Origin: a virus
Taxonomy: Duplodnaviria; Heunggongvirae; Uroviricota; Caudoviricetes
Strand: one strand, 5' to 3'
DNA length: 64,000 nucleotides
Virus record (IMG/VR): IMGVR_UViG_3300044712_001463
Below the pieces are notes generated by a model. The model ran no database searches, was not told where the DNA came from, and worked only from the letters and a program-made list of their open reading frames with translations. The position numbers and the translations under genes are program-made. Shown piece by piece: positions 28,060-55,028 of this stretch (within the stretch, counting starts at the first letter, position 1; the number at the start of each line of letters is the position of its first letter).

Positions 28060-28502
28060 TTTCTTACCGGGCAAACTTATTTGAATCCTTGAACAGGGTG
28101 GTGGCTAAACAGTATCAGCCTGGGGATGTATTTAAGGAAAGTGGTATTGCTGATAGTTTTTCCATCTTAATGATTGAACGGGTAGGTAGAGAAAGAGGTG
28201 GACAAACTCTTTATTGGCTTCATAGAAAAGGTCTTCCCGATCAGAACATAAAGCTTACCCAGAAACAATTAGATGACAAGGCTAGTTTTAATTATATTAG
28301 GCACTTGGACTTGGGTGACTGGAAGGTAGGAGACTTTTGTAAATTAAACGAATCCTTCCAGGGAGATCAAGAAACATATAAAATAGAAACAATATTCCTA
28401 GATAACTTCGATATGGTCAGGGTAGGCTTAAATAAAAACTGGAGTTATCATAATGTTGCTGAAAAAACCGTGCTGCTTGTCCATATAAAAAAGCCTTCCT
28501 AG
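28056..28502 (+). CDS. leader family protein (last array member)
   Basis: MISYRANLFESLNRV; ATGA coupling. Confidence 0.7.
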   Translation: MISYRANLFESLNRVVAKQYQPGDVFKESGIADSFSILMIERVGRERGGQTLYWLHRKGLPDQNIKLTQKQLDDKASFNYIRHLDLGDWKVGDFCKLNESFQGDQETYKIETIFLDNFDMVRVGLNKNWSYHNVAEKTVLLVHIKKPS

Positions 28503-28646
28503 TTCTTGGTAAGATTTTTTAGCACAGGCTAAAGGCTTTTTCGGACTAGAACCTGACATAATACATATAATATGCACACAAAGAAGACTGCTCTGTAACA
28601 GCAGTCTTTTTCTTTGTCTGGGGATCTTCTGGGGATCATATTAGAA

Positions 28647-28666
28647 CCTACTTAAATATAAGTAGA
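28647..28666. repeat. inter-cassette palindrome CCTACTTA-AATA-TAAGTAGa (imperfect right arm)
   Basis: Member of 14-copy family. Confidence 0.7.
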
Positions 28667-28691
28667 ATGCGGATAGCCTAGGCTAGGTGTC

Positions 28692-28719
28692 TTGACATGT
28701 GTCCTAGGGCGAGTATAAT
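28692..28719 (+). promoter_or_regulatory. promoter (TTGACAtgt variant)
   Basis: -35/-10 consensus. Confidence 0.6.
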
Positions 28720-28889
28720 CAGGGTATGAATCAACCACTTCTCAGGAGGCTCTCATGGCGACTTTTAGGAAAGTTCATAAGAAGGGGACTTGGCGATAAA
28801 AGGTGTTTATTTATTACTCCTTTTTTGATATAATTTGATCCAGGAGGTAGTTCTCCATTTCGGAGGACGGATCAAAAAGGGGCAATCAA

Positions 28890-29141
28890 ATGAGAAACCT
28901 ATATCGCTGGGTTCTAGAAAAGGAGATAAAGAGGATAGGCTTGCATGAGGGCTCGGTCTGCATTGTTCCTTTGGGCAAGGATGTCTATCTAGTTGGGGAC
29001 GGCAACAGATTCATTGAAGCCAAGGGGCATAAGATTCTTAGAATCCTTAAGAAGGTGCCTAATAAGGCTGGATACGATTTTCTGTGGCAGTCATTGAAGC
29101 CACTGCGGAAGCCAAAGAAAGTAGCTGACAAAACAAGATAA
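28890..29141 (+). CDS. hypothetical small basic protein (first GC-rich cassette)
   Basis: Promoter 28692; terminator downstream. Confidence 0.5.
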   Translation: MRNLYRWVLEKEIKRIGLHEGSVCIVPLGKDVYLVGDGNRFIEAKGHKILRILKKVPNKAGYDFLWQSLKPLRKPKKVADKTR

Positions 29142-29152
29142 TTGAGTATAAT

Positions 29153-29192
29153 AAGGGGTGAGGCTATTCGGCTTTCACCCCTTCTTATTTTA
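29153..29192 (+). terminator. rho-independent terminator
   Basis: aaggggtgaggc...gctttcaccccttcttatttt. Confidence 0.6.
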
Positions 29193-29203
29193 GGAGTACA
29201 TAT

Positions 29204-29512
29204 ATGGGAACCGCAACTGAGACTTTGAGGAACATCATCTACAGGTGGAGGATCTCCCGGGATGAGGCTGATGCCATCAACCTGGTAGACAAGGGCGACG
29301 AGTTTGGGGCTCCTCAGACCACCTACATTCTGATGACCGACGAAGAGAATGGCGCTGCTGTTTGGATCGGAACTGAGAGGGGCGAGATCAGACGCTTCCT
29401 CAGGTTCTATGATGACAAGACACGAGCCATACGTTGGGCTGTCCGCGAAGCCGAGAAGTATGTTAGAGAGCGGAACATCCCTGAAGCCTCACCAGATGCA
29501 ACGAACGACTAA
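29204..29512 (+). CDS. hypothetical protein
   Basis: RBS taggag; terminator downstream. Confidence 0.5.
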   Translation: MGTATETLRNIIYRWRISRDEADAINLVDKGDEFGAPQTTYILMTDEENGAAVWIGTERGEIRRFLRFYDDKTRAIRWAVREAEKYVRERNIPEASPDATND

Positions 29513-29537
29513 GATTCACACAGGGAATTAGGAATTA

Positions 29538-29573
29538 AAGAGCCGCTCTCTTTACGGGAGTGGCTCTTTTTTC
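29538..29573 (+). terminator. rho-independent terminator
   Basis: agagccgctctc...gagtggctctttttt. Confidence 0.6.
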
Positions 29574-29602
29574 TTGACAAGATGGGTAGGCTTATGCATA
29601 AT
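29574..29602 (+). promoter_or_regulatory. cassette promoter (-10 CATAAT)
   Basis: ctTGACAaga...tgCATAATg. Confidence 0.6.
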
Positions 29603-29621
29603 GTAGGCAAGGAGGTGTGAT

Positions 29622-29846
29622 ATGAGACGCAAGCGTTGTCCTGTATGTGGAGACCTTCCCGAGTATTGTTGCAGTGGAGATAAGATCGGTTTCTATGGTC
29701 ACTTCTTGGAGTGCCCTAGACATAGGTGTAGGCTCAGGACCCAGTATTATGATCATCCAGACAAAGCATTGCAAGCCTGGAACGAACGACTCGCACTCTG
29801 TTATGCAGGAAAGTTAGCTGACCTGAAGCCTAAGAGGAAGTCATGA
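29622..29846 (+). CDS. Cys-rich zinc-finger-like protein (CPVCG...CPRHRC)
   Basis: Promoter 29574, RBS aaggagg; ATGA coupled to tilS. Confidence 0.55.
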   Translation: MRRKRCPVCGDLPEYCCSGDKIGFYGHFLECPRHRCRLRTQYYDHPDKALQAWNERLALCYAGKLADLKPKRKS

Positions 29847-30475
29847 TCCGTTTTGAAAAGCGACTAGTGGATAAGAGCAAGCATGTGCACGTAGCGTGCT
29901 CAGGTGGAGTTGACTCCATGGCAGTGTGTGACTTCCTGAAGAGGGGTGGCTTCAATGTCCGCCCCGTCTTCTTCAACCATGGCACTGAGACGAGTCGTGC
30001 GGCGGAGATCTTCCTGGAGAACTATTTCACTGTAGGCTTCACCAAAGGCAAGTTGTATGGCGAGAAGCCTAAGGATAAGTCCTGGGAGGAATACTGGCGC
30101 GATGAGCGCTATAAGTTCTTCAACAGCCTAGGCTTGGAGACAATTGTCACTGCGCATCACCTAGATGACTGTGTCGAATCTTACGTCTTCAGTGCACTGC
30201 ATGGGAATGCCAAACTTCCCATGGTTCACCGTAGGCTCGGGCGCAGTATCGTCGTCCGCCCCTTCATGATGACCTCGAAGAGCGACCTAGTCGCCTGGGC
30301 TAAGCAGCATAATGTGCCCTGGATGGAAGATGCTAGCAACTTCGATGTCTCAGTGGGAACCCGGAACTACGTGCGGCATGCGTTGATGCCTGGCATCCTT
30401 CGAGTCAACCCTGGTATTTCCAAGGTGGTGGCTAAGAAGGTTAGAGAATTATACTTGACAAGTTTGGCGAAGTGA
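29843..30475 (+). CDS. tilS: tRNA(Ile)-lysidine synthetase TilS-like (N-terminal catalytic domain only, 210 aa)
   Basis: PP-loop ACSGGVDSMAV; FNHGT; TAHHLDDCVESYVFSALHG; RPFMM..K.DLVAWAK.H..PWMEDASN. Confidence 0.75.
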   Translation: MIRFEKRLVDKSKHVHVACSGGVDSMAVCDFLKRGGFNVRPVFFNHGTETSRAAEIFLENYFTVGFTKGKLYGEKPKDKSWEEYWRDERYKFFNSLGLETIVTAHHLDDCVESYVFSALHGNAKLPMVHRRLGRSIVVRPFMMTSKSDLVAWAKQHNVPWMEDASNFDVSVGTRNYVRHALMPGILRVNPGISKVVAKKVRELYLTSLAK

Positions 30476-30482
30476 GTATAAT
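30455..30482 (+). promoter_or_regulatory. cassette promoter driving tRNA(CAT)
   Basis: Overlaps tilS 3' end. Confidence 0.7.
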
Positions 30483-30493
30483 AGTAAGTGTTC

Positions 30494-30570
30494 GGGAACC
30501 TAGCTCAATTGGTTAGAGCAAGCGACTCATAATCGCTAGGTTCAGGGTTCAAGTCCCTGGGTTCCCACCA
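30494..30570 (+). tRNA. tRNA with CAT anticodon (Met elongator or Ile2/lysidine substrate)
   Basis: Cloverleaf, acceptor GGGAACC/GGTTCCC, loop CTCATAA, CCA encoded; directly downstream of tilS and promoter 30455. Confidence 0.8.
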
Positions 30571-30595
30571 CCTTTTCTTCTTCTAGGAGTCCGCA

Positions 30596-30739
30596 ATGCG
30601 CAAGTATTCTGCAAACAAGGGTCGGGAAGCCGCACTGAAGGCGTGGAAGACCATCCGCCGCAAGAAGGCTGCTGAAGCCAAGAAGTGGCGTGAGGCTGGG
30701 CTCAAGGCATGGAAGACCCGCAAGCGCAACGGCAACTAA
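30596..30739 (+). CDS. small basic protein (47 aa) with AALKAWKT / AGLKAWKT internal repeat
   Basis: RBS taggagt; not in ORF track (<60 aa); terminator follows. Confidence 0.45.
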   Translation: MRKYSANKGREAALKAWKTIRRKKAAEAKKWREAGLKAWKTRKRNGN

Positions 30740-30758
30740 AGAAGGCAAATCAAGGCAG

Positions 30759-30797
30759 AAAAGACCAGGGGCTAGCAACCTCTGGTCTTTTTGTTTG
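30759..30797 (+). terminator. rho-independent terminator
   Basis: aagaccagg...cctctggtctttttgtttg. Confidence 0.65.
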
Positions 30798-30800
30798 GGC

Positions 30801-30828
30801 TTGACAAGTGGTCTGGGAAGTGTATAAT
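30801..30828 (+). promoter_or_regulatory. cassette promoter
   Basis: consensus. Confidence 0.7.
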
Positions 30829-30856
30829 AGAGCCATACCTACTTTAGGAGGAAGTC

Positions 30857-31063
30857 ATGGACAACAAGATGAATAAGTTGCTTGAAAGGGTCAAGAAGGA
30901 ACTGAAGGAAGAGAAGGTGAAATACGCTGACAGGACCAAGCAACGCGAAGAGGACCCTGAGTTGGACTGCGACCACGAATTCATGGACTCCTACATCGCT
31001 CAAGAGGGCTACATCGTCGCCCTCGAAGAGATGATCAAGTGGATTCGCTACTACGGGAGGTAG
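30857..31063 (+). CDS. hypothetical protein
   Basis: Promoter 30801; RBS taggagg. Confidence 0.5.
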   Translation: MDNKMNKLLERVKKELKEEKVKYADRTKQREEDPELDCDHEFMDSYIAQEGYIVALEEMIKWIRYYGR

Positions 31064-31065
31064 TC

Positions 31066-31266
31066 ATGGCTGGTAAATACGGCAACTATACCTTCACCAT
31101 TACCATCGGAGCATATGGCAATGGACCTGACGACGCCTTCAACAGCGCCGTCCAGATGCTCTGCGAGGACCCTGGAGCCACCCCTGAGGACTACGAGTTT
31201 GAGGAAGATGAAGAGAGTGACGAGGACGACGAGGAGACCGAAGACGGGGAGGACGACCATGACTAA
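31066..31266 (+). CDS. small protein with poly-acidic C-terminus
   Basis: Start at ATG 31066 (ggagg upstream). Confidence 0.5.
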   Translation: MAGKYGNYTFTITIGAYGNGPDDAFNSAVQMLCEDPGATPEDYEFEEDEESDEDDEETEDGEDDHD

Positions 31267-31576
31267 GCCCTATAAGCCTAAGATGTTTTTCCGATACAGA
31301 ATCGTTGGGATGTCTAATTCCCCTTGGTTTGCCACTCTCGTTCAAAAGATTGAGCGGCAATGGGGAAAGTTTGATTCAAAGAGTAAAGAAAAGCGCTATG
31401 GGCAGTGGCTAGCGGATGAAGAGGGACACAATATCGAATGGCAGTTTACCAATAAACTCCCAAAGAAAGAATGGGAGCAACTTAAGGACCAACTTAAAGA
31501 TAGAATGGAAGATGCCAAGTCTGACTATAACGCAATCATGGACCACAAACTTTATGGAAAGGTGGTGAAGTCATGA
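31259..31576 (+). CDS. hypothetical protein
   Basis: Start at ATG 31259 overlapping upstream stop. Confidence 0.45.
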   Translation: MTKPYKPKMFFRYRIVGMSNSPWFATLVQKIERQWGKFDSKSKEKRYGQWLADEEGHNIEWQFTNKLPKKEWEQLKDQLKDRMEDAKSDYNAIMDHKLYGKVVKS

Positions 31577-32007
31577 CTAGGGATGAAGCCAAGAAGGTTT
31601 ACGACGAGGCTGAGGCACTCCTGACTGCCCTTGCTGCAAAGCATGGGTTTCAACTAGACCGTGGTGTTGGTGGCACGTTCGGCATCGATGAACTGAACCT
31701 GCGTGCCAGGTTTACTTCTGCGGTCAGTCCTGAACAGAAGGAAGAGAAGCGCAAGAGGGACTTCGAATTCAACTGCTTCCATTATGGGGTTGACAAGAAG
31801 CATTACCGTGCGACTCTGCTGTATGGTGGAAAGAGGTATCTCCTGGTGGGATTCAATACTCGGAAGCCGAAGTATTGCGTCATGGCTGAGGATGTTGCGA
31901 CAGGCAAGGTCTGGGGTCTTCCCGAGTTAGCGCTCGGCAAACTTCAGAAGAAGGGTTTCCGTGACCTCGATGACGAGGCTTGGAAGGCAGAGGGAAAGGC
32001 ATCTTAG
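31573..32007 (+). CDS. hypothetical protein
   Basis: ATGA coupling; 144 aa. Confidence 0.5.
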   Translation: MTRDEAKKVYDEAEALLTALAAKHGFQLDRGVGGTFGIDELNLRARFTSAVSPEQKEEKRKRDFEFNCFHYGVDKKHYRATLLYGGKRYLLVGFNTRKPKYCVMAEDVATGKVWGLPELALGKLQKKGFRDLDDEAWKAEGKAS

Positions 32008-32010
32008 CCC

Positions 32011-32038
32011 TTGACAAGTTTTACGAATCGGATATAAT
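32011..32038 (+). promoter_or_regulatory. cassette promoter
   Basis: consensus. Confidence 0.7.
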
Positions 32039-32073
32039 AGGTCTATCAGACTTCTCTCTTTAAGAGGTGTGTC

Positions 32074-32340
32074 ATGGCGAAGACCAAGGTCAACATCGAC
32101 ATCTACTACACACTGAATTCGGGCTCCTTGGCTGATTCACGCGCCAAGAAGATCTTGAAGGAGTTCCTGTTCTTCAAGGGTCTGGGAAAGCCCAGGCTCC
32201 TGGAGCAGGGCTCTGGCTTCTGCTTCCTGAACAAGGAGCGGGACATCTCGTTCTGCACCACGGTCAACAAGTCCCTCCCTCGGAACATCGTCGGCAAGAC
32301 CTACAAGAACCTGCGCATCTACATAAGGAAGGCGGTCTAG
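32074..32340 (+). CDS. hypothetical protein
   Basis: Promoter 32011; leader ctctttaagaggtgtgtcATG. Confidence 0.5.
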   Translation: MAKTKVNIDIYYTLNSGSLADSRAKKILKEFLFFKGLGKPRLLEQGSGFCFLNKERDISFCTTVNKSLPRNIVGKTYKNLRIYIRKAV

Positions 32341-32342
32341 CC

Positions 32343-32519
32343 ATGATGCGCAAAGCGAAAGTCGGAGATGTTGTCCAGGTCTCTGGCTATGTAGATACTG
32401 CTACTGTCGTTGATGTCCTCAAGGATGTTCCTGGCGGGGTTCGTCTCGACAAGTACATCGGTGATTTCAGGTATTGGAACATCGATGAACTTACTCTTGT
32501 GTGGAGGAAGAGGTCATGA
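32343..32519 (+). CDS. small protein (58 aa)
   Basis: ATG follows upstream stop; not in ORF track. Confidence 0.4.
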   Translation: MMRKAKVGDVVQVSGYVDTATVVDVLKDVPGGVRLDKYIGDFRYWNIDELTLVWRKRS

Positions 32520-32746
32520 TGAAACAGGAACTCTACGATGTTTGCTTTGGCTCTGGTGTCATGGCGGTCGCCGTCATCAACATAAACGATGATAAGCCCT
32601 TTGATTGGGGAGCCTATATCGGAGTCCAGGCTACTGGGGACCAGATGCTCGACAGGGAGCACATTGCGAAACACGGAGTCAAGCTGACCAAGAAGGTGGC
32701 TGAGGCTATCTTTCCTTTCGGCGGAATCGTGAAATACCGCGATTAG
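32516..32746 (+). CDS. hypothetical protein
   Basis: ATGA overlap. Confidence 0.45.
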   Translation: MMKQELYDVCFGSGVMAVAVININDDKPFDWGAYIGVQATGDQMLDREHIAKHGVKLTKKVAEAIFPFGGIVKYRD

Positions 32747-32749
32747 CTC

Positions 32750-32777
32750 TTGACAAGTTTCCCAAAAGGCATATAAT
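32750..32777 (+). promoter_or_regulatory. cassette promoter
   Basis: consensus. Confidence 0.7.
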
Positions 32778-32815
32778 ATACCTTGACAGACAAAACTCTC
32801 TCTAAGAGGTCGGTC

Positions 32816-33073
32816 ATGGCGAAGAAAAAGGTCGAGAAGGTCAAGAAGTATGTCCCAGGTCGCCACATCAAGAGGGGCTTCTCGGTCCTGAAGCAGGCTG
32901 AGGGCGGTCCCTGCCTGACCAACGCTGACCTCAAGTGCTTCGCTCGCATCACCAAGGGCATCGTGTCCATCAAGCGGGTTTACTCCTGCTACGTCGGGCA
33001 CACGGGTATCGAGGTCTGCGGGACCCCCAAGGCTGTCAACAAGTGGGCTCTCGACTACCTCGGCTTCAACTAA
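32816..33073 (+). CDS. hypothetical basic protein
   Basis: Promoter 32750; leader ctctctaagaggtcggtcATG. Confidence 0.5.
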   Translation: MAKKKVEKVKKYVPGRHIKRGFSVLKQAEGGPCLTNADLKCFARITKGIVSIKRVYSCYVGHTGIEVCGTPKAVNKWALDYLGFN

Positions 33074-33080
33074 CATCTTC

Positions 33081-33157: not shown

Positions 33158-33175
33158 TCTTCTAAGAGGTCTCAG

Positions 33176-33511: not shown

Positions 33512-33519
33512 AATAAAGC

Positions 33520-49810: not shown

Positions 49811-49847
49811 GGTCATCGCTGCGACTGGAGTGGCGCCTGGTCTCATC

Positions 49848-49872: not shown

Positions 49873-50038
49873 TTATCCGGGCAGCCCGCTGCAACTGATG
49901 TCCCAGGTGAGTAGTACTTTATTCTGAGGGCTCCCCTAATCTAGGTTCAAAACCTACTATAGATAGTTAGGGAATAATGTCCTACCCCTGCCCTTTATAT
50001 ATCAGGAAGACAAAACAACCCATTCTCTGAGGTGAGTC

Positions 50039-50353
50039 ATGTGGCACTACTCCATCAAGCAGTTCAACTACCAGACGGGGCAGTTCGAGTTTTACTCCCA
50101 CGGAGTCTCGACAGAGCACGAGGGGTGGGAGGTCGTCTTTGCCAATGCCGAGCAGTTCAGGTTGGTGGAGGCACCCCGGAAGTTCGGGCAGGTGCGACAC
50201 GGTATGCGTGCCACACTGACGGATAGGGCAACGCGGGAGGTAGTCTTTGTCGCACGGGTCTTTGAGGACGGAAACCCTGAGCAGCACGAACCCCTTCCTG
50301 GCGAGCCGCTCGAATACGAAGACCTCGCATCTCCCCTGGATTCTGAAGACTAG
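50039..50353 (+). CDS. hypothetical protein
   Basis: SD gaggtgag; no consensus promoter upstream. Confidence 0.45.
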   Translation: MWHYSIKQFNYQTGQFEFYSHGVSTEHEGWEVVFANAEQFRLVEAPRKFGQVRHGMRATLTDRATREVVFVARVFEDGNPEQHEPLPGEPLEYEDLASPLDSED

Positions 50354-50362
50354 TAGTCAAGT

Positions 50363-50397
50363 AAAAGAAGCCCCTAGAAATAGGGGCTTTTCTTTTG
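50363..50397 (+). terminator. rho-independent terminator
   Basis: gaagcccctagaaataggggcttttcttttg. Confidence 0.65.
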
Positions 50398-50444
50398 CGC
50401 AAACAACCAGGCGTCAGTTTGCCGGAGCTCCTGGGGACTCATAT

Positions 50445-50466
50445 ACCTACTTATATATAAGTAGGT
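50445..50466. repeat. inter-cassette palindrome ACCTACTTA-TATA-TAAGTAGGT
   Basis: family member. Confidence 0.8.
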
Positions 50467-50520
50467 CAGATGTCTCCTCCGCCAGCTAGCCGGGATCGAT
50501 CTGACTGGCGTCATCTCTTC

Positions 50521-50548
50521 TTGACAAGTTCTCATATTCATGTATAAT
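50521..50548 (+). promoter_or_regulatory. cassette promoter
   Basis: consensus. Confidence 0.7.
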
Positions 50549-50577
50549 AGACTTACACCCAAACCAAGGAGTAAGTC

Positions 50578-50751
50578 ATGGGATGCGATAACTGCAAATA
50601 CCTTAAGAGGCAGATATACGGTCTTCGCATGGATGGAACTGTTGATACTATCGGTTCCTGTATGTTCCTCGTCAATGGCATCAAGATTCGTGGCGCTAAG
50701 AAAGAAACCGACACCTGCGCCGACTTCGAAGAAACCCCAACCAAGGAGTAA
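50578..50751 (+). CDS. small Cys-containing protein (57 aa)
   Basis: Promoter 50521; SD aaggagtaag. Confidence 0.4.
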   Translation: MGCDNCKYLKRQIYGLRMDGTVDTIGSCMFLVNGIKIRGAKKETDTCADFEETPTKE

Positions 50752-50754
50752 GTC

Positions 50755-50991
50755 ATGAACAATCAAGAGCGCCAAGCCCTCATCAACGAACTGAACGCCA
50801 ACCTCAAGTCCATCCACAAGTGCTCCCGCCACACCCGCCGTGAACGGGCAGTCAGCGCAATGAAGGTCTGCCTTGCGCTCGGCAAGGACACGGACAACCG
50901 TGAGGATGGCGTCATCGACCTCTGCAAGAGCATCGTCAAGGCATCGGGGTATGCCTACGAGCGAATCGTCAACCTCGCCTTCATCCTCTGA
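50755..50991 (+). CDS. hypothetical protein
   Basis: SD aaggagtaag. Confidence 0.5.
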   Translation: MNNQERQALINELNANLKSIHKCSRHTRRERAVSAMKVCLALGKDTDNREDGVIDLCKSIVKASGYAYERIVNLAFIL

Positions 50992-50998
50992 GCAGGTC

Positions 50999-51175
50999 AT
51001 GGAAATCGTCATCCTCGAAAAATACACAGGCGGCAACCTCGTCAAGAAAGAACTTGCCGCCTTGAAGCAGGGGAAGAATCCGTGGAAGGGAGTAAGCGGA
51101 TTGAGCCCCTTGGTTAAGAAGATACAAAAGAGGAATGAAAAACTTCAGAACTTCAAAAAGCAATTCTCTTACTAG
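50999..51175 (+). CDS. small protein (58 aa)
   Basis: ATG after upstream stop. Confidence 0.35.
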   Translation: MEIVILEKYTGGNLVKKELAALKQGKNPWKGVSGLSPLVKKIQKRNEKLQNFKKQFSY

Positions 51176-51185
51176 GAGCGCCATC

Positions 51186-51425
51186 ATGCAAATCCACCTG
51201 TTGGTCATGGAAGAGATGAAACCCATCCCCAAGAACATCAAGGTTCTGTTTGACTGGGATGAAGTGGGCATCGTCACGGACAAGAAAACCACCGTCTCGG
51301 GGACGCACATGATGGTGGAAGGCACCGAGGAAGCGCTCAAGGCATGGCTGTCGCCGTTCGATGCTGTCTGGGTGGGCAAGGGAGCGCCCCAACTTCAGAA
51401 CTTCCAAGTCATGCACATCGCCTAG
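51186..51425 (+). CDS. hypothetical protein
   Basis: SD taggag. Confidence 0.45.
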   Translation: MQIHLLVMEEMKPIPKNIKVLFDWDEVGIVTDKKTTVSGTHMMVEGTEEALKAWLSPFDAVWVGKGAPQLQNFQVMHIA

Positions 51426-51436
51426 GGAGCCCTGTC

Positions 51437-51712
51437 ATGGAAATTACCAACATCGAGCAGTTGTATGACACCATGAGGGATTGCGGCATCTGCACCCCTG
51501 GTGAACGTTGGGCAGGTGGTCTTTCCCATCATCCCAAGTCCATCGCACTGTTCAATGCGCTTTCCGTCATCGATATGGTGACGAACAAGGGCGAAGGGGA
51601 TTGGACCTCTGGTGGTGACGGAGACAACGGAGAGCAGTTGATGTATCTTTTCGACATCATTTTCGAACTCGAAGGACTCGGATATACCGTCAGCAAAGAT
51701 GCGTGGATGTAG
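51437..51712 (+). CDS. hypothetical acidic protein
   Basis: SD tagggag. Confidence 0.45.
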   Translation: MEITNIEQLYDTMRDCGICTPGERWAGGLSHHPKSIALFNALSVIDMVTNKGEGDWTSGGDGDNGEQLMYLFDIIFELEGLGYTVSKDAWM

Positions 51713-51759
51713 TCATGGCACATATCCGACTTAGGTCAACCCGAAAAATGCGCTGAACT

Positions 51760-51800
51760 AAAAGAGGGCTCTCTTAACTGGGAGCCCTCTTCAGTTTTCC
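51760..51800 (+). terminator. rho-independent terminator
   Basis: agagggctctcttaactgggagccctcttcagttttcc. Confidence 0.6.
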
Positions 51801-51831
51801 GGTCATCTCCTCCCGGGGATCACCGGTAATA

Positions 51832-51854
51832 GACCTACTTACTTTTAAGTAGGT
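51832..51854. repeat. inter-cassette palindrome GACCTACTTA-CTTT-TAAGTAGGT
   Basis: family member. Confidence 0.8.
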
Positions 51855-51896
51855 ATAGCCTACCTAGCCAGGGAACCCGACCTGGTCATCTCGAGC

Positions 51897-51924
51897 TTGA
51901 CAAGTTCAAAGATTTCGGTATAAT
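51897..51924 (+). promoter_or_regulatory. cassette promoter
   Basis: consensus. Confidence 0.7.
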
Positions 51925-51944
51925 AGAATCAAGGAGATAGCCCA

Positions 51945-52352
51945 ATGCAAATCCACCAAACAATCGGCAAGGTGCGTAGCGCTCTAGAGATTTATGCTAG
52001 CCGCCATCATCTGCTCGGAGCAGACGAAAGTCTGACCTGCTGGTGTGCCATTGGGTCATCCGTTCTCAAGCGCATCCTGAAGGAAAAGCACAATCTCAAT
52101 CCCAAGTTTGTCCGAGGTGCGTGTCTCAATGGCAATCACTGCTGGATTGAATTAGAGGAATACGCGATTGATATAACCGCGTCGCAGTTCTTCAATCAGA
52201 AGGTAAAGATATTCAAGACCAAGAAATACAACAAGGATGAATACGACCCTATCGAAGTCCTAGAGAACGAATACAAACTTGATTGGGGAGACCAAGCACC
52301 CAAACCCAAGCACCTCAAGGCAGTAAAGGCAATCCTCAAAACCCTCTCTTAA
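51945..52352 (+). CDS. hypothetical protein
   Basis: Promoter 51897; SD aaggag. Confidence 0.5.
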   Translation: MQIHQTIGKVRSALEIYASRHHLLGADESLTCWCAIGSSVLKRILKEKHNLNPKFVRGACLNGNHCWIELEEYAIDITASQFFNQKVKIFKTKKYNKDEYDPIEVLENEYKLDWGDQAPKPKHLKAVKAILKTLS

Positions 52353-52375
52353 TCGGAGAGGGTTTTCTCTTTCCC
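52339..52375 (+). terminator. rho-independent terminator
   Basis: aaccctctcttaatcggagagggttttctctttcc. Confidence 0.65.
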
Positions 52376-52411
52376 GGCGATCTCTTCCGGTACGCGTGCA
52401 GCACTGCCAAA

Positions 52412-52433
52412 ACCTACTTATCTTTAAGTAGGT
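52412..52433. repeat. inter-cassette palindrome ACCTACTTA-TCTT-TAAGTAGGT
   Basis: family member. Confidence 0.8.
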
Positions 52434-52476
52434 GCCTGCCACCACCAGGATGTCCTCCCAGCGGGCGACTTTCTCC

Positions 52477-52504
52477 TTGACAAGTTCGCCTATTTATGTA
52501 TAAT
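52477..52504 (+). promoter_or_regulatory. cassette promoter (unit near-identical to 53528)
   Basis: consensus. Confidence 0.7.
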
Positions 52505-52534
52505 ATAATCATACCCAAACAAAGAGGTGCTCAA

Positions 52535-52756
52535 ATGAATCCGTGGGTTTCCTCAATCATCTTCCTCTCCTTCATCCTCATCTGCGCCAAGGACAAGATT
52601 CTTGCTCTGTTCTGTATCCTGCTCTTCATCGCAGAGAACACCTACTTCGGGTGGAACCTGCATCCTTCCTGCACAGGGGAAGAGGTCTGCGACTTGTTCG
52701 TTCTCATCGTTGGCATCTTTGCCCTCTTCCACGAACCCAAGACAAAGGAGAATTAA
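52535..52756 (+). CDS. small membrane protein
   Basis: Promoter 52477; start ATG 52535. Confidence 0.5.
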   Translation: MNPWVSSIIFLSFILICAKDKILALFCILLFIAENTYFGWNLHPSCTGEEVCDLFVLIVGIFALFHEPKTKEN

Positions 52757-52758
52757 CC

Positions 52759-53169
52759 ATGTCCATCCTCAAGCAAGCGCTCGACCTGTCAGGCGTCATC
52801 GACAAGAACGAAACAGCGAAGCAGGTGAATGAAGTCATCGACACCCTCGACCTTCACAGCAAGGAAGGAACCGCTGTCGGCAAGAACCTCGGTGTCCTGC
52901 TCTCGGCAACCAAGTTCGCTCATCACCTCGGAACCTTCAAGGCACTCTTCATCGTCATCCTCAACCTCGCTCTCTACAACAACATCCCTAATCACCTGCT
53001 CGCCATCTCTCTCGCCGTCCTCATCGACTTCCTCTTTCTCAGGTCTATGAAGTCCGTCCAAGAACGGTTCATGGTGGTCTGCATGGCATGGACTACCGAC
53101 TTCACCCTCGGCAGGTTCGACATGGAAGGCAATTCAGTCAAGACCTACACGAAGTTGATTCGGAAGTAG
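52759..53169 (+). CDS. membrane protein
   Basis: SD aaggag; start ATG 52759. Confidence 0.5.
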   Translation: MSILKQALDLSGVIDKNETAKQVNEVIDTLDLHSKEGTAVGKNLGVLLSATKFAHHLGTFKALFIVILNLALYNNIPNHLLAISLAVLIDFLFLRSMKSVQERFMVVCMAWTTDFTLGRFDMEGNSVKTYTKLIRK

Positions 53170-53382
53170 GACCATCGCAGTTCAGGTGTCCCTTCACAGG
53201 GTAAGACGACAAAAGGGTTCGCGTTTCATGGTAACGTCGAAGGATGTGGGTTCCTATTAGGAATTGCTAGGGACCAAGGTTAGAACCCCATTACCTACTT
53301 CACATCCGCAAGGGTAAGATAATCCCTGCATCTGACAAGCGTAATCTCATTCCCGTTCTGAGAAAACCAAGCAACGGGCAAT

Positions 53383-53420
53383 AATGAAACCCTCTCCTGC
53401 AAGAGAGGGTTTTTTGTTTG
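53383..53420 (+). terminator. rho-independent terminator
   Basis: aaaccctctcctgcaagagagggttttttgtttg. Confidence 0.7.
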
Positions 53421-53463
53421 TCAGCAGTCCCCACTGGTACCGGACATCTCCGACGGCAATAGA

Positions 53464-53483
53464 ACTACTTATATATAAGTAGG
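53464..53483. repeat. inter-cassette palindrome aCTACTTA-TATA-TAAGTAGG
   Basis: family member. Confidence 0.75.
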
Positions 53484-53527
53484 TAGGACATCCCAAGAAG
53501 TTCTCCTCCCAGGGGACTACTTCGCCC

Positions 53528-53555
53528 TTGACAAGTATTCGAATTTATGTATAAT
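53528..53555 (+). promoter_or_regulatory. cassette promoter
   Basis: consensus. Confidence 0.7.
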
Positions 53556-53585
53556 ATAATCATACCCACCAAACAGGAGACTTCC

Positions 53586-53825
53586 ATGACCAAGAACATC
53601 TTCAATGCAATCGTCATCACCTACATGCTCATCGCCATCGCTGTCTCCTGCTACTGCAATATCATCAAGGGGTTCCGAATCTTCGACCTGCCCATGCAGT
53701 TTCGGGAAGAGGTCTACACCGCTTCAGGTCTGCTGTGGAACCACATCACCACCGATTTCGCCCTGCTCTGCCTGATTCCCACCCTGCTTGTTGGGGTCTA
53801 CATCATCTTCTTTGTGAAGGACTAG
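53586..53825 (+). CDS. small membrane protein
   Basis: Promoter 53528 with leader near-identical to 52477 unit; start ATG 53586. Confidence 0.5.
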   Translation: MTKNIFNAIVITYMLIAIAVSCYCNIIKGFRIFDLPMQFREEVYTASGLLWNHITTDFALLCLIPTLLVGVYIIFFVKD

Positions 53826-53827
53826 TC

Positions 53828-54046
53828 ATGTTGACCTTCAAGGAAAACGTCAAGAAGTTCGGCAAACCCATTCAGGGCAAGGTCTATGACTGCAAACTCC
53901 AAAGTTTCACCTCGGGCAAGATTGTCGAGGAAAAGTTAGTCGCGGTCTTCAAGGATGACTGTGCGTGGAGAACGGCAGATGACTTCTCGGAAATCAACGA
54001 GATGAATTGGAACGTCATCGAATGGCATCTTGCCAAGGAGAAGTAG
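53828..54046 (+). CDS. hypothetical protein
   Basis: SD gaagga. Confidence 0.4.
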   Translation: MLTFKENVKKFGKPIQGKVYDCKLQSFTSGKIVEEKLVAVFKDDCAWRTADDFSEINEMNWNVIEWHLAKEK

Positions 54047-54048
54047 TC

Positions 54049-54294
54049 ATGAGCAATCCTCTGCGACAGGACAGACTTCCCAAGGACAAGAAGACCAAGC
54101 GGTGCCCTGCTTACATCCGTGAGAAGTATGGACTTGACAGGAGGGGCAAGGGGAAGAACGGGGAACTCTCCCTGCTTCAGGCATCCCACATCCTCGCTCA
54201 CCGCCCTGAACCTACCCTGCGTGAACACATCGAAACCTTCATCGCCAAGGTTTTCGGATATGAAGGCAACCTTCCTTGGAATGAGAGGATGTAA
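54049..54294 (+). CDS. hypothetical basic protein
   Basis: SD aaggag. Confidence 0.45.
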   Translation: MSNPLRQDRLPKDKKTKRCPAYIREKYGLDRRGKGKNGELSLLQASHILAHRPEPTLREHIETFIAKVFGYEGNLPWNERM

Positions 54295-54437
54295 TGACTA
54301 CCTTCGTTCTTATCCTCATAGTGTTTGCTTCCCTTACCTTCCTCTTTGGCATGATTGGTCTTGCCTTGTGGGGAATGGGGTTCATCAAGGGAACCATGCC
54401 CCTAACCAAAGCAAACACTGTTGGTCTTCGCCTTTAA
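54294..54437 (+). CDS. small TM peptide (47 aa)
   Basis: TAATG overlap; hydrophobic. Confidence 0.3.
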   Translation: MTTFVLILIVFASLTFLFGMIGLALWGMGFIKGTMPLTKANTVGLRL

Positions 54438-54440
54438 TCC

Positions 54441-54468
54441 TTGACAAGTCTTTAAGAATAGATATAAT
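54441..54468 (+). promoter_or_regulatory. cassette promoter
   Basis: consensus. Confidence 0.7.
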
Positions 54469-54498
54469 AAAGATACACCCCAACAAAGGAAGTCAGTC

Positions 54499-54744
54499 AT
54501 GAAACTCACGTGGACAGTCTCTAAGGTTCCTGGGTGCTCCTCCAAACACTACATCTCCAATCCGCACCCCATGGTCAAGTTCGTCATCACCACTGCCTGT
54601 GGTTCATCCAAGGAAGGAAGGGTCTACATGTTCGGGGGTTGCATTCCCCACATCGGGTTCGGCAGTCTAGACAACTGCAAGAAAGCATGCGAAGATTTCT
54701 ACAACGGTCTCCTCGCTCTCTCTTCCCCTCCCTCAGGAGTCTAA
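54499..54744 (+). CDS. Cys-containing hypothetical protein
   Basis: Promoter 54441 (near-identical to 39732 unit); SD aaggaag. Confidence 0.5.
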   Translation: MKLTWTVSKVPGCSSKHYISNPHPMVKFVITTACGSSKEGRVYMFGGCIPHIGFGSLDNCKKACEDFYNGLLALSSPPSGV

Positions 54745-54815
54745 CATGTCCGTCGTCCGAGTCACTTCCCATCGCAAGATGCACTAGAATCCTGGAAAAC
54801 CCTTGTAACTCAAGC

Positions 54816-54846
54816 ACAAAGCCCCAGAAATGGGGCTTTTTTGCGT
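54816..54846 (+). terminator. rho-independent terminator
   Basis: aaagccccagaaatggggcttttttgcg. Confidence 0.65.
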
Positions 54847-54912
54847 GCCATAGACTGCCATAAGGCGCCTTATGACCTGTACCGGCTAGAAATGCGGGCA
54901 AAATACTTCATT

Positions 54913-54932
54913 TCTACTTAAATATAAGTAGT
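54913..54932. repeat. inter-cassette palindrome tCTACTTA-AATA-TAAGTAGt (last copy, at GC-rich/AT-rich boundary)
   Basis: family member. Confidence 0.7.
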
Positions 54933-55028
54933 TTTAACTGGAGAAAAAGGGCTTGATCTGGATAAGAAATTCGAGTTTTCTGAGGAAAGCGAGCCAGGTC
55001 CCCATATCCACGCTTTATAACTTTTCGT

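Follow-up and report, generated by a model that had tools for sequence, protein, structure and literature searches.

The region from 28,648 to 54,931 of this phage DNA raises the question of what kind of gene set stands behind so many nearly identical promoters, and how that set is divided and controlled. In the window, i.e., the whole stretch of 64,000 nucleotides analysed, the region (28648-54931, +) is a GC-rich island of ~26 kb with a GC content of ~0.50 vs ~0.33 in the flanks, the rest of the genome being AT-rich, and it contains 58 genes, 7-8 tRNAs, 35 promoters, and ~20 terminators. We read it, with a probability of roughly 60%, as the early block ("host-takeover" or hyperplastic genes) that depends on the host RNA polymerase in a large, AT-rich phage; this phage is so far unique, and no relatives of it were found in any collection searched.

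The perfect sequence TTGACA-N16-TATAAT occurs at 32 sites in the 64-kb window, all on the + strand and none on the minus strand, where 0.08 would be expected by chance. Twenty-nine of these sites lie between 28,692 and 54,441, and the spacer is 16 nt in every perfect promoter, within an extended consensus of cTTGACAAGT..N13..TATAATa. Six near-perfect promoters, five with 11 of the 12 consensus bases and one (44946) with 10, are also located in the island, so that the claim of an earlier note that consensus promoters run throughout the array is borne out by 29 perfect and 6 near-perfect sites, all on the + strand.

Promoters (perfect unless described):
28692-28719, +
29125-29152, +, near-consensus CTGACA-N16-TATAAT; terminator-like hairpin 29153-29190 within the leader
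29574-29602, +, near-consensus TTGACA-N17-CATAAT
30455-30482, +, in the 3'-terminal codons of the TilS-like gene; drives tRNA(CAU) 30494-30570
30801-30828, +
32011-32038, +
32750-32777, +
33520-33547, +, 68 nt leader to HTH-like gene 33616
34041-34068, +, near-consensus CTGACA-N16-TATAAT
34495-34522, +, drives the tRNA cluster
35630-35657, +, near-consensus TTGATA-N16-TATAAT
35716-35743, +
36490-36517, +
37019-37046, +, near-consensus TTGACA-N16-CATAAT
37293-37320, +
38167-38194, +
39136-39163, +
39732-39759, +, overlaps the last codons of gene 39192-39746
40693-40720, +, 64 nt leader to HTH-like gene 40785
41112-41139, +
42475-42502, +, -35 hexamer contains the upstream gene's stop codon
43091-43118, +
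43656-43683, +, -35 hexamer contains the upstream gene's stop codon
44487-44514, +, -35 hexamer contains the upstream gene's stop codon
44946-44973, +, near-consensus TTTAAA-N16-TATAAT with a TG extended -10
45810-45837, +, 136 nt structured leader
47005-47032, +, overlaps the end of gene 46629-47015
47943-47970, +
48362-48389, +, -35 hexamer contains the upstream gene's stop codon
48829-48856, +
50521-50548, +
51897-51924, +
52477-52504, +
53528-53555, +
54441-54468, +, directly 3' of the stop of gene 54294-54437
954-981, 2403-2430, and 3436-3463, +, island-type promoters outside the island

The three outside promoters (954, 2403, and 3436) drive genes for MnmA, an HNH protein, and an SPFH protein, together with small genes, and some genes of this region are GC-enriched (2504-3382, GC 0.51).

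The units that follow the promoters are less independent than the earlier note proposed. About 10 island promoters extend into the gene ahead of them, sharing bases with its 3' end or its stop codon, and therefore the units are nested, transcripts must overlap, and not all units are autonomous. An intrinsic terminator had been claimed for each of ~30 units, and only ~20 strong ones were counted, all on the + strand; promoter-driven small genes are thus retained from the proposal of ~30 autonomous cassettes, in ~20 terminator-bounded units. The sequence ttccggtcatc, described as a reused spacer module, has a single exact copy and, with up to 2 mismatches, 20 copies vs 15 expected, and is not significantly repeated. 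Promoter 37019-37046 is followed by ~240 nt without a convincing ORF and then by a terminator, and therefore marks a candidate small RNA.

Strong intrinsic terminators:
28581-28620, +, closes the upstream low-GC operon
29537-29577, +
30767-30799, +
33884-33924, +, end of module 1
35673-35712, +, 3' of the tRNA cluster
36984-37018, +
37245-37295, +
38029-38072, +, end of module 2
38996-39026, +, end of module 3
41054-41093, +
42957-42998, +, end of module 4
44802-44837, +, end of module 5
47809-47849, +, end of module 7
48657-48698, +, end of module 8
49774-49808, +, end of module 9
50366-50398, +, end of module 10
51762-51803, +, end of module 11
52338-52374, +, end of module 12
53386-53421, +, end of module 13
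54818-54847, +, closes module 14 and the island

A larger division is given by the palindrome CTACTTA-N4-TAAGTAG, of which 15 perfect copies (14 specified bases, no mismatches) are present vs 0.26 expected. Within the 64 kb they are confined to the island, with one at each edge, and the GC content changes abruptly, at 28.6 and 54.9 kb, just where the first and last copies lie. The arms are invariant, the centre and flanks vary, and the half-site CTACTTA does not occur on its own in the 64 kb. Fourteen of the 15 copies come after a terminator, and 12 lie upstream of a promoter at 44, 52-53, 62-64, or 72-74 nt; no consensus promoter was found downstream of those at 45527, 49852, and 54914.

Palindromes (no strand assigned; distances to the -35 hexamer unless described):
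28648-28665, palindrome 1, CTACTTA-AATA-TAAGTAG, left island edge, terminator 37 nt upstream, -35 hexamer 44 nt downstream
33978-33995, palindrome 2, centre AATA, 63 nt before 34041
38115-38132, palindrome 3, centre TATA, 52 nt before 38167
39062-39079, palindrome 4, centre AATA, 74 nt before 39136
43038-43055, palindrome 5, centre AAAA, 53 nt before 43091
44882-44899, palindrome 6, centre TATA, 64 nt before 44946 (near-consensus promoter)
45527-45544, palindrome 7, centre AAGG, overlaps gene 45005-45544 at its stop codon; no terminator upstream and no promoter within 280 nt
47879-47896, palindrome 8, centre CTTT, 64 nt before 47943
48757-48774, palindrome 9, centre TTTT, 72 nt before 48829
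49852-49869, palindrome 10, centre AATA, gene 50039 follows without an intervening sigma-70 consensus promoter
50447-50464, palindrome 11, centre TATA, 74 nt before 50521
51835-51852, palindrome 12, centre CTTT, 62 nt before 51897
52414-52431, palindrome 13, centre TCTT, 63 nt before 52477
53465-53482, palindrome 14, centre TATA, 63 nt before 53528
54914-54931, palindrome 15, centre AATA, right island edge, 75 nt after the last terminator

The composite boundary, i.e., a terminator, 37-75 nt, the palindrome (A)CCTACTTA-N4-TAAGTAGG(T), 44-74 nt, and a promoter, separates 14 larger modules. Their 58 + strand genes (median 85 aa) are mostly ORFans, nearly all without a Pfam or PHROG match, in agreement with the small, mostly unassigned ORFs noted earlier, and the gene calls agree with independent calls on an identical public contig. 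The few matches (Lar-like, PP-loop/TilS-like, phosphoesterase, and radical SAM) are typical phage early or auxiliary genes. Each promoter interval holds 0-5 genes (mean of 1.7), and every island gene is close to a strong promoter.

Modules and their genes:
28666-33977, +, module 1, 15 genes and 3 tRNAs: 28890-29141, 29204-29512, 29622-29846 (Lar-like), 29843-30475 (PP-loop, TilS-like), 30596-30739, 30857-31063, 31066-31266, 31259-31576, 31573-32007, 32074-32340, 32343-32519, 32516-32746, 32816-33073, 33176-33436, 33616-33852 (HTH-like)
33996-38114, +, module 2, with tRNA cluster 34536-35554: 34113-34349, 34381-34491, 35769-36095, 36117-36482, 36537-36782, 37350-37811, 37815-38006; non-coding stretches 34612-34937, 35184-35480, 36783-37290
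38133-39061, +, module 3: 38213-38968 (calcineurin-like phosphoesterase)
39080-43037, +, module 4: 39192-39746 (radical-SAM, HxsC-like), 39789-40160, 40180-40689 (DUF4241), 40785-41027 (HTH-like), 41158-41982 (WGR), 41987-42478, 42545-42934
43056-44881, +, module 5: 43138-43659, 43702-44211, 44215-44490, 44546-44773
44900-45544, +, module 6: 45005-45544 (hydrophobic stretches, by eye)
45545-47878, +, module 7, opening with non-coding stretch 45545-45809: 45974-46261 (Cys-rich), 46258-46626, 46629-47015, 47061-47225, 47269-47769
47897-48756, +, module 8: 47995-48159, 48171-48365, 48422-48613
48775-49851, +, module 9: 48901-49749 (282 aa; no homologue among 5.8 billion proteins)
49870-50446, +, module 10, without a sigma-70 consensus promoter: 50039-50353
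50465-51834, +, module 11: 50578-50751, 50755-50991, 50999-51175, 51186-51425, 51437-51712
51853-52413, +, module 12: 51945-52352
52432-53464, +, module 13: 52535-52756, 52759-53169; non-coding stretch 53170-53385
53483-54913, +, module 14: 53586-53825, 53828-54046, 54049-54294, 54294-54437, 54499-54744

The distances from palindrome to promoter show a 10.0-bp periodicity (R = 0.88, p < 0.001), and none of 5,000 random sets scored as high; the periodicity persists when only unique distances are used (R = 0.86, p = 0.0004), and the distances from terminator to palindrome have none (R = 0.29, p = 0.98). Shared ancestry could account for part of the phasing, as distances of 62-64 nt make up half of the phased set, but the spacer sequences between palindrome and promoter are unlike one another. 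The palindrome set is probably the operator network of a dimeric regulator. Each copy would then be an operator from which a DNA-binding dimer, always on one helical face, acts on the promoter that leads the module, with putative operators centred near -70, -78, -88, and -99, and the regulator would coordinately shut down or boost the gene set. The candidate binders are two paralogous island-encoded proteins (33616-33852 and 40785-41027), which are predicted to form a three-helix bundle (core pLDDT of ~90) and carry GRP (AT-hook-like) tails. A Foldseek search with the three-helix protein gave no significant fold match (best E-value of 0.6). Many of its weak hits were helix-turn-helix domains.

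The leaders are less uniform than the conserved 5' untranslated region per unit that had been proposed. The exact leader AGAGGTCGGTCATG has 2 copies (4 when up to 2 mismatches are allowed), and a CTCTCT..GAGG leader lies upstream of 6 genes, so that an exact leader belongs to only 2-6 units; the typical island leader is short and G-poor, with a median of 30 nt between the -10 hexamer and the ATG. What is general in island genes is a Shine-Dalgarno sequence at -11 to -7, with GTC at -3 to -1 before the ATG in 31 of 58 island genes and in none of 71 flank genes. This is a start-site context and not a shared leader, because promoter-distal genes have it too.

The island also differs from its flanks in codon usage, being GC- and C3-rich, whereas the AT-rich remainder is rich in AUA, AAA, AGA, and UUA. 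Third-position GC is 0.64 in the island and 0.29 in the flanks, and the respective frequencies per 1000 codons are 4.3 and 39.9 for AUA, 19.6 and 64.6 for AAA, 4.5 and 25.2 for AGA, and 2.9 and 25.8 for UUA. Early and late phage genes are known to differ in codon usage (PMC5683454), and that of the island may favour efficient translation of immediate-early mRNA before the phage remodels the cell.

tRNA genes:
30494-30570, +, tRNA(CAU), directly 3' of the TilS-like gene
33081-33157, +, tRNA-Arg(CCU)
33437-33511, +, tRNA-Arg(CCG)
34536-34611, +, tRNA-Lys(UUU)
34938-35012, +, tRNA-Gly(GCC)
35021-35096, +, tRNA-Phe(GAA)
35107-35183, +, tRNA-Met(CAU)
35481-35554, +, weak tRNA-like element (32 bits), anticodon loop UAU

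The tRNA(CAU) at 30494-30570 may, we infer, be tRNA-Ile2, in which case lysidine modification would allow it to decode AUA, and the D and T arms of tRNA-Met(CAU) look initiator-like when compared with those of E. coli tRNA-fMet. The AT-rich remainder may depend partly on tRNA(CAU) and the TilS-like enzyme, on tRNA-Lys(UUU), and on MnmA from the outside promoters. A reading in which the tRNAs simply serve AT-rich codons is too simple, since the codons of Arg(CCU) and Arg(CCG) end in G and are favoured in the island. The only hint of the host is the SPFH gene: Leptospirales MAGs with a local GC of 0.38 carry a gene that is 53% identical to it. A host of this kind would place the island above host GC, which weakens the idea of host-like codons.

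A chimeric assembly was considered as the source of the island and rejected: the right junction is also present in an independent assembly, the island promoter type recurs at 0.9-3.5 kb, and the boundary has members of the MSLFDA/MISYRANLFESLNKQ gene family on either side. The dinucleotide signature argued neither for nor against a foreign origin.

In the island, ~35 sigma-70 consensus promoters point rightward into 58 small genes and 7-8 tRNAs. The sequence fits the host-takeover-style early array of the earlier note in its perfect sigma-70 promoters, strong Shine-Dalgarno sequences, ORFans, and use of one strand only, and in its genes for tRNAs and tRNA modification; early timing and takeover function we infer from promoter type and gene content. 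That account did not include the GC island and its codon usage, the palindromes, their helical phasing, or the tRNA genes. The island thus looks like a first-strike gene set with a putative built-in master switch. In style the island, with its small and mostly ORFan genes, is similar to the SPO1 host-takeover module and to the T5 early regions. The closest published analogue, which the earlier note did not mention, is the PeSL promoter-terminator cassettes of T4-type phages, in which near-perfect sigma-70 promoters lie upstream of ORFans (PMC2839356, PMC4122927). The island is most distinctive in its composition and codon usage, in the 15 perfect palindromes bounding 14 modules, and in their helical phasing to the promoters.

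The window is phage-like throughout, with tightly packed small genes on the + strand, and it contains one GC-rich island (28,648-54,931) that is a real and strongly non-random feature. At either end of this block, the GC content changes from approximately 0.33-0.38 outside to approximately 0.50 inside in less than 500 bp, a step of about 17 points at both edges. A pattern search of the window found 32 perfect TTGACA-N16-TATAAT promoters, all on the + strand, against 0.08 expected; 29 of these are in the island, and the other three are at 954, 2403, and 3436. Six more island sites are near consensus (five match 11 of the 12 bases, and the one at 44946 matches 10), which gives 35 promoters per 26 kb. 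The spacer is 16 nt in all perfect copies, conservation is wider than the hexamers (cTTGACAAGT ... (G/A)TATAATA(G/A)), and the DNA upstream of the -35 box is GC-rich. The leaders from -10 to the ATG have a median length of 30 nt and are poor in G (14%).

The curated gene set of the island comprises 58 genes on the + strand with a median length of 85 amino acids (34 are <100 amino acids) and a coding fraction of 0.72, and it agrees, where the two overlap, with independent gene calls on a 100% identical public contig. Each promoter interval contains 0 to 5 genes (mean, 1.7). The intergenic DNA holds approximately 20 strong intrinsic terminators on the + strand, and approximately ten promoters share sequence with the end of the gene before them (final codons or stop codon), with no terminator in between; the island is therefore not a set of 30 insulated cassettes. 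The earlier note had described about 30 autonomous units, and the dense promoters and small genes on which that description relied are indeed present, but the arrangement is one of about 20 terminator-bounded units with additional internal promoters. A terminator lies within about 30 nt 5' of the -35 box at only about six promoters (29574, 30801, 35716, 37019, 37293, and 41112).

Coding and regulatory layers are tightly packed at the gene ends that overlap promoters. The cTTGACAAGT box doubles as coding sequence of the upstream gene at 30455, 39732, 42475, 43656, 44487, 47005, and 48362, and two unrelated proteins share the C-terminal ..LTSL(AK), in which TTG ACA AGT is read in frame. In four genes, the TGA within TTGACA is the stop codon.

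Gene starts in the island follow a common grammar, i.e., a purine-rich Shine-Dalgarno (SD) sequence fixed at -11 to -7, followed by G at -3 (71%), T at -2 (64%), and C at -1 (79%). The context GTC-ATG is found in 31 of the 58 island genes, promoter-distal ones among them, and in 0 of the 71 flank genes, whose starts favor A-rich contexts. This grammar is what remains of the shared leader reported previously: it is general, but the exact leader string has 2 copies, or 4 at ≤2 mismatches. A CTCTCT..GAGG leader is located upstream of 6 genes. The "ttccggtcatc" spacer module of the earlier note does not occur more often than expected by chance. Its functional guess of a host-takeover role is reasonable, but its anatomy was right only in part, and the compositional and codon domain and the palindrome were both absent from its account.

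The codon usage of the island differs sharply from that of the low-GC flanks. Third-position GC is 0.64 in the island versus 0.29 in the flanks, and third-position C is 0.35 versus 0.13. Per 1000 codons, AUA occurs 4.3 versus 39.9 times (9-fold), AAA 19.6 versus 64.6, AGA 4.5 versus 25.2, and UUA 2.9 versus 25.8. The non-coding DNA of the island is also GC-rich (0.46). In the dinucleotide signature, the delta* values among the island thirds are 23-53 (very alike), those among the heterogeneous flanks are 66-142, and those between island and flanks are 85-172, so that flank-versus-flank values are about as large as flank-versus-island values and fall in the same range.

Fifteen copies of a palindrome, (A)CCTACTTA-N4-TAAGTAGG(T), divide the island into modules; all have 0 mismatches over the 14 core bases, against 0.26 copies expected, and the outermost coincide with both compositional edges. 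No copy is found elsewhere in the window. Isolated half-sites (CTACTTA) do not exist in the window, which dismisses a signal from single half-sites, and an extended cruciform or attC-like structure was rejected because further pairing around the palindrome is seen in only 3 of 14 copies. The 4-nt center is A/T-rich and variable, and the flanking DNA is unrelated among copies. In 14 of the 15 copies, the palindrome lies 37-75 nt 3' of a terminator, and in 12 copies, the -35 box starts 44, 52, 53, 62, 63, 63, 63, 64, 64, 72, 74, or 74 nt after it. The boundary element thus consists of a terminator, the palindrome, and a promoter, with a terminator-to-promoter distance of 100-140 nt at module boundaries.

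The palindrome-to-promoter distances are periodic at 10.0 bp with a resultant length (R) of 0.88, which was matched by 0 of 5,000 random sets; with only the eight unique distances, R is 0.86 (p = 0.0004). The terminator-to-palindrome distances, which served as a control, have no periodicity (R = 0.29, p = 0.98). This phasing to the promoter, and not to the terminator, argues for an action of the palindrome on the promoter from a single helical face. When transcription is assumed to start 7 nt after the -10 box, the palindrome centers are near -70, -78, -88, and -99. Two hallmarks of an operator are thus found, namely, a site of dyad symmetry that recurs upstream of promoters with unchanged half-sites (15 of 15 perfect) and dependence on the face of the helix (10.0-bp periodicity, aperiodic control). 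With its invariant half-sites and variable center, and with neither isolated half-sites nor compensatory changes, the palindrome has the features that an operator bound by a dimeric protein would show.

Two island genes (33616-33852 and 40785-41027) encode paralogues that are 61% identical, and both are modeled as a three-helix bundle (core pLDDT of approximately 90) flanked by RKxGRP and RGRR tails. A Foldseek search with the three-helix protein gave no significant match, and the weak matches were mostly to helix-turn-helix domains. These proteins are candidates for the palindrome binder and nothing beyond that. Neither a ParB/KorB nor a CRP-family protein was found in the window. The leaders of the two paralogues are unusually long (64-68 nt; 33548-33615 and 40721-40784) and both carry, immediately 3' of the promoter, a GGG..CCCCT hairpin with a possible role in autoregulation. 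The leader of the gene starting at 29204 contains a terminator-like hairpin (29153-29190, -20 kcal/mol) followed by a T-run, which is a possible attenuator.

Nearly all island genes are ORFans. Family searches with the 58 proteins (Pfam/PHROGs) assigned the following feature:

29843-30475, + strand: TilS-like PP-loop enzyme

The only further family matches among the 58 proteins are a Lar-like zinc protein, a calcineurin-like phosphoesterase, a radical-SAM HxsC-like protein, DUF4241, and a WGR domain. The short TilS-like protein (210 amino acids) matches Pfam PF01171 with an E-value of 3e-24, and its motif SGGVDS fits the SGGxDS of the N-terminal PP-loop ATPase. Nine small membrane proteins are apparently encoded in the island, as judged from the sequences by eye.

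Seven tRNAs and one weak tRNA-like element are located at 30.5-35.6 kb. A tRNA with the anticodon CAU lies directly 3' of the TilS-like gene (29843-30570 for the pair), and its promoter is embedded in the last codons of that gene. From this adjacency and a resemblance of the anticodon arm, it is a candidate tRNA-Ile2, the predicted target of lysidine formation. The D and T arms of a second CAU tRNA (35107-35183) resemble those of the bacterial initiator tRNA, but U1 pairs with A72 in this molecule, and just two G:C pairs adjoin its anticodon loop. The tRNA-like element (35481-35554) is weak (32 bits) and was not called by ARAGORN; its UAU anticodon loop would read AUA. Outside the island, a full-length MnmA (tRNA 2-thiouridylase; 1009-2031) lies behind the promoter of the same type at 954 and is followed by an HNH endonuclease gene (2028-2399). 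The A-ending codons AUA and AAA are 3-9 times commoner in the low-GC genes, and the TilS-like enzyme and MnmA would favor their decoding.

Non-coding stretches of 230-330 nt are found in or beside the tRNA cluster (34612-34937, 35184-35480, 36783-37018, and 37047-37290). The last has its own near-consensus promoter (37019) and a terminator (37245-37295), and the first folds better than shuffled controls (z = -2.8). Rfam searches over the non-coding gaps at gathering and E-value thresholds gave only tRNAs. From their sequence features, these stretches are candidates for stable small RNAs and are similar to the unexplained species 1 and 2 RNAs of the T4 tRNA region.

For the composition of the island, we favor the hypothesis of stage-specific tuning. 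The early mRNAs, with their C- and G-ending codons, would be read well without help from the phage, and the AT-rich remainder, rich in AUA, AAA, AGA, and UUA, would be aided by phage-supplied decoding functions. The same promoter class drives the tRNA(CAU) beside the TilS-like gene, tRNA-Lys(UUU), and MnmA (at 954), and all of these would specifically aid A-ending codons. On the other hand, the Arg tRNAs CCU and CCG serve G-ending codons, and the sole host hint, the resemblance of an SPFH gene to genes in Leptospirales metagenome-assembled genomes with a local GC content of 0.38, would set the island above the GC content of the host. Alternatively, the composition might allow AT-directed silencing or nucleases to be evaded at entry, or the block might be of foreign origin. 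A wider proposal, which we put forward tentatively and with the odds against it, is as follows: one phage genome may contain two expression "dialects" separated by a hard physical border, the first-strike compartment being wired by 15 identical, helically phased operators, so that early DNA and mRNA could be recognized, protected, silenced, or destroyed as a class by the cell or the phage. The marks of this compartment are its perfect-consensus sigma-70 promoters with a 16-nt spacer, SD-N3-GTC-ATG, codons rich in C3/G3, and GC-rich non-coding DNA. If this is true, the early DNA could, e.g., evade AT-directed xenogeneic silencing or nucleases as it enters the cell, after which one protein could shut off the set and the early mRNAs could be selectively degraded or left untranslated.

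As a whole, the island is best read as an early expression block. The host sigma-70 holoenzyme would transcribe it immediately on entry, the promoters in gene ends would place every small gene within one to two genes of a strong start, the terminators would restrict spill-over between units, and the operators would mediate coordinated shut-off or activation. The one-directional array of consensus promoters, the short unstructured leaders with a strong SD, and the frequent terminators are directly visible; the timing, the palindrome binder, and the cause of the GC shift are what we infer from them. The repeated promoters, terminators, and palindromes might instead be chiefly substrates for recombination, homologous or site-specific, in a hyperplastic block produced by cassette shuffling, with cassettes drawn from a higher-GC phage pool and the palindrome as the target of a recombinase or homing nuclease. 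We consider such a scaffold rather unlikely, and it is compatible with early expression of the block. It fits the 14 modules of 0.6-5.3 kb, each bracketed by identical 18-22 bp palindromes of which the outermost lie exactly at the compositional edges, and the ORFan genes, for which homologues elsewhere were not found; the 9+4+9 layout, with a variable center that looks uncontacted, presumably resembles homodimeric nuclease sites. The low-GC island members of the MSLFDA family seem to have been imported recently from the flank, and the promoter-early stem-loop (PeSL) cassettes of T4-type phages have been published as shuffling mediators that form mini-circles (PMC2839356). However, integrase, recombinase, and LAGLIDADG genes are absent from the island, the HNH protein (2028-2399) is the only nuclease found in the window, a helical phase with the next promoter is not expected of a pure recombination site, and no related genome that would show gain or loss of cassettes is present among the collections searched. 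Moreover, the island is compositionally very homogeneous (delta* of 23-53 between thirds) and has a single promoter type and start context throughout, which argues for long residence under common selection and not for a recent mosaic.

The sharp GC steps (approximately 17 points in <500 bp) at both ends, the distinct codon usage, start context, and promoters of the block, and the identical palindromes at both edges would also be expected if a self-regulated mobile element or satellite had integrated here, or if two genomes had been joined in a chimeric assembly. An explanation of this kind is highly improbable, since perfect promoters of the same type are also found beyond the block (954, 2403, and 3436), members of one gene family, recognized by their N-terminal (MIS)..NLF(D/E)(S/A)LNKQ, are found in both compartments, the genes are co-oriented on both sides, and integrase, replication, and packaging genes are absent from the block. 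The right junction is identical base for base in a separate assembly, and the database also lists a 94.9-kb JGI contig with these proteins; an assembly chimera is unlikely in view of this junction, the outside promoters, and the shared family. Another explanation concerns the palindrome only, which might act as a nucleic-acid hairpin rather than a duplex operator, either as an N4-style DNA-hairpin promoter for a phage-borne RNA polymerase or as an RNA stem-loop that processes or stabilizes read-through transcripts or backs up their termination. A stem of 7-10 bp with a 4-nt loop folds in every copy, the site is just 3' of terminators, where only read-through RNA would carry it, and three copies have no sigma-70 promoter after them, of which two still precede genes (50039; 55330 onwards). 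Nevertheless, the stem has no following T-run, the 7-bp arms are invariant without compensatory variation, and the outer positions vary without keeping the pairing (A..G in 38115 and 53465 and T..T in 54914). The phasing to the sigma-70 promoter is a geometry of duplex DNA, no RNA polymerase gene was seen in the window, and the hairpin explanation is accordingly improbable. The operator remains our preferred reading of the palindrome.

Several loci outside the island, or shared with it, were also observed. A tandem array of at least about 28 translationally coupled paralogues of approximately 150 amino acids occupies 8615-28502, and some members of 290-320 amino acids resemble two fused units. 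The array genes have a near-invariant N-terminus (MISYRANLFESLNKQ..GD) and an internal (F/Y)K(I/V)G(D/Q) motif, and their bodies are otherwise divergent. Four higher-GC members, which start with MSLFDA(L/I).K, are in the island (41158-41982, 41987-42478, 43138-43659, and 43702-44211). No member of the family was found outside this phage; the conserved N-terminus on variable bodies recalls, by analogy, the capsid-targeting sequence of T4 internal proteins. A mini-island at 2403-4464 contains the perfect promoters at 2403 and 3436, an SPFH/Band-7 gene with a GC content of 0.51, and small genes with GC contents of 0.44-0.50; palindromes are absent from it. The SPFH gene is 53% identical to Leptospirales sequences, which was too weak to use for host assignment. 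Directly after the last palindrome, an AT-rich gap of 400 nt (54932-55330) contains a 10-bp inverted repeat, GTGTGACACC (55210) and GGTGTCACAC (55244), and the 10-mer AGTATAGTAG at 55287, which has one other exact copy at 3861 (region 3850-3894). Both copies of the 10-mer lie 23-33 nt 5' of a low-GC gene start, and this element may represent another, non-sigma-70 type of promoter, which would serve the genes of the next temporal class. The window opens within a gene (1-950) whose product has the Walker-A P-loop motif GKPGTGKSS and could be an AAA+-type ATPase. This gene, MnmA, and a Dam-type methyltransferase gene (6016-6825) are the only large enzyme-like genes of the window, and no structural, replication, or packaging genes are found anywhere in the 64 kb.

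No close relative was found in any collection searched. Megablast and tblastn searches against 50,697 phage records gave only tRNA-sized matches or distant homologues of MnmA and of the radical-SAM HxsC-like island protein, the latter being also present in crAss-like and huge phages. IMG/VR scans with the palindrome and the extended promoter gave only single, chance-like matches, and a metagenome scan with the 22-bp palindrome gave 27 loci with one site each and the promoter architecture in none. Only proteins of this same phage were retrieved from 5.8 billion proteins, and exact-protein look-ups gave only fragments of 100% identity, all from a single sequencing run.

T4-type phages, SPO1, and T5 are known to have small ORFans preceded by arrays of strong host-type promoters. 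To our knowledge, the collective switch-off of early sets and their separation from later genes are understood in only a few model phages. Here, a set of early type is marked at four independent levels (promoter, start context, codon usage and GC content, and promoter-phased palindrome), each with sharp borders, and the 22-bp candidate operator and the two candidate binders encoded next to it provide a testable handle. The island also offers a natural test of whether codon usage and GC content are adapted to the stage of infection. Its approximately 50 compact, self-contained expression units of uncharacterized small proteins suit toxicity or anti-defense screens, and its promoters can serve directly as a collection of natural consensus promoters that differ in spacer and leader. 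Three aspects merit follow-up: the phased operator network, the two-dialect composition, and the GTC-ATG start context.

Among known systems, the repetition of one perfect palindrome a dozen or more times upstream of promoters is similar to the KorB OB network of IncP plasmids, and site positions that differ by whole helical turns (approximately -70, -78, -88, and -99) are similar to those of the class I activators CRP and phi29 p4; the CRP sites are at -61.5, -71.5, -82.5, and -92.5. Unlike in those systems, whose cognate protein is known, the palindromes here follow terminators. In an integron array, a tyrosine-recombinase integrase lies next to cassettes that lack promoters, and each cassette ends in an imperfect attC of 57-141 bp. 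An integron-like cassette array is excluded here because the island has no integrase, its cassettes have their own promoters, and its repeat is a perfect palindrome of 18-22 bp. We know of no early/late codon difference of this amplitude with so sharp a border. Early and late genes of one phage, e.g., T4, can differ in synonymous codons in connection with tRNA supply (Mioduser et al. 2017, PMC5683454), whereas the effect here is much larger (third-position GC of 0.64 versus 0.29; 9-fold for AUA) and has a sharp physical border.

As in the T5 early regions and the T4 immediate-early promoters, the sigma-70 promoters of the island are conserved beyond the two hexamers. The promoters of the T5 pre-early and early regions and of the T4 immediate-early class are extremely strong sigma-70 promoters that are read by the unmodified host polymerase; those regions are less compositionally distinct from the rest of their genomes and lack a repeated palindrome. 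The host-takeover module of the Bacillus phage SPO1 comprises genes 37-60 in the terminal redundancy; the genome ends of the present phage lie outside the window. The SPO1 module is likewise a compact cluster of small genes (approximately 25 early genes) served by numerous strong host-type promoters, together with strong ribosome-binding sites and several terminators, and it encodes mostly phage-specific proteins, initially of unknown function. The dense small genes, multiple strong host-type promoters, and strong SD sequences of this type are all found in the island, for which early timing is predicted. No homologue of SPO1 gp37-gp60 or of other characterized takeover proteins was found among the 58 proteins (PHROGs and Pfam). 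The block is twice as large as the SPO1 module, from which it also differs in its tRNAs, its palindromes at module boundaries, and its compositional island.

Among published systems, the block comes closest to the PeSL cassettes, which are found in hyperplastic regions of the T4-type phages phi1/RB49, PST/T4, and nt-1/KVP40. In phi1 and RB49, approximately 50 near-perfect sigma-70 promoters per genome lie with stem-loop terminators and an SD upstream of ORFans; the promoters are experimentally very strong, the stem-loops terminate, and modular shuffling has been proposed (PMC2839356, PMC4122927). The island has similarly tens of such promoters (29 perfect and 6 near-perfect in 26 kb), with terminators and an SD directly upstream of small ORFan genes. 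However, its spacer is invariably 16 nt, compared with 17 nt in PeSLs, and the DNA upstream of its -35 box is GC-rich instead of AT-rich. PeSL terminators lie between or overlap the promoter boxes or are in the AT-rich stretch just upstream (PMC2839356, PMC4122927), whereas a terminator is fused to or adjoins only about 6 of the 35 promoters here, i.e., it is generally not integrated. A separate, perfectly conserved, promoter-phased palindrome stands between terminator and promoter, the elements are concentrated in one 26-kb block that is distinct in GC content, codon usage, and start context, and, unlike in the genomes that carry PeSLs, T4 core genes are not seen in the 64-kb window. By analogy, the block would work like PeSL cassettes and the SPO1 host-takeover module, and from its sequence features, it probably belongs with the known early or hyperplastic regions of phages, among which its phased palindromes, two-dialect composition, and GTC-ATG start context are distinguishing features.
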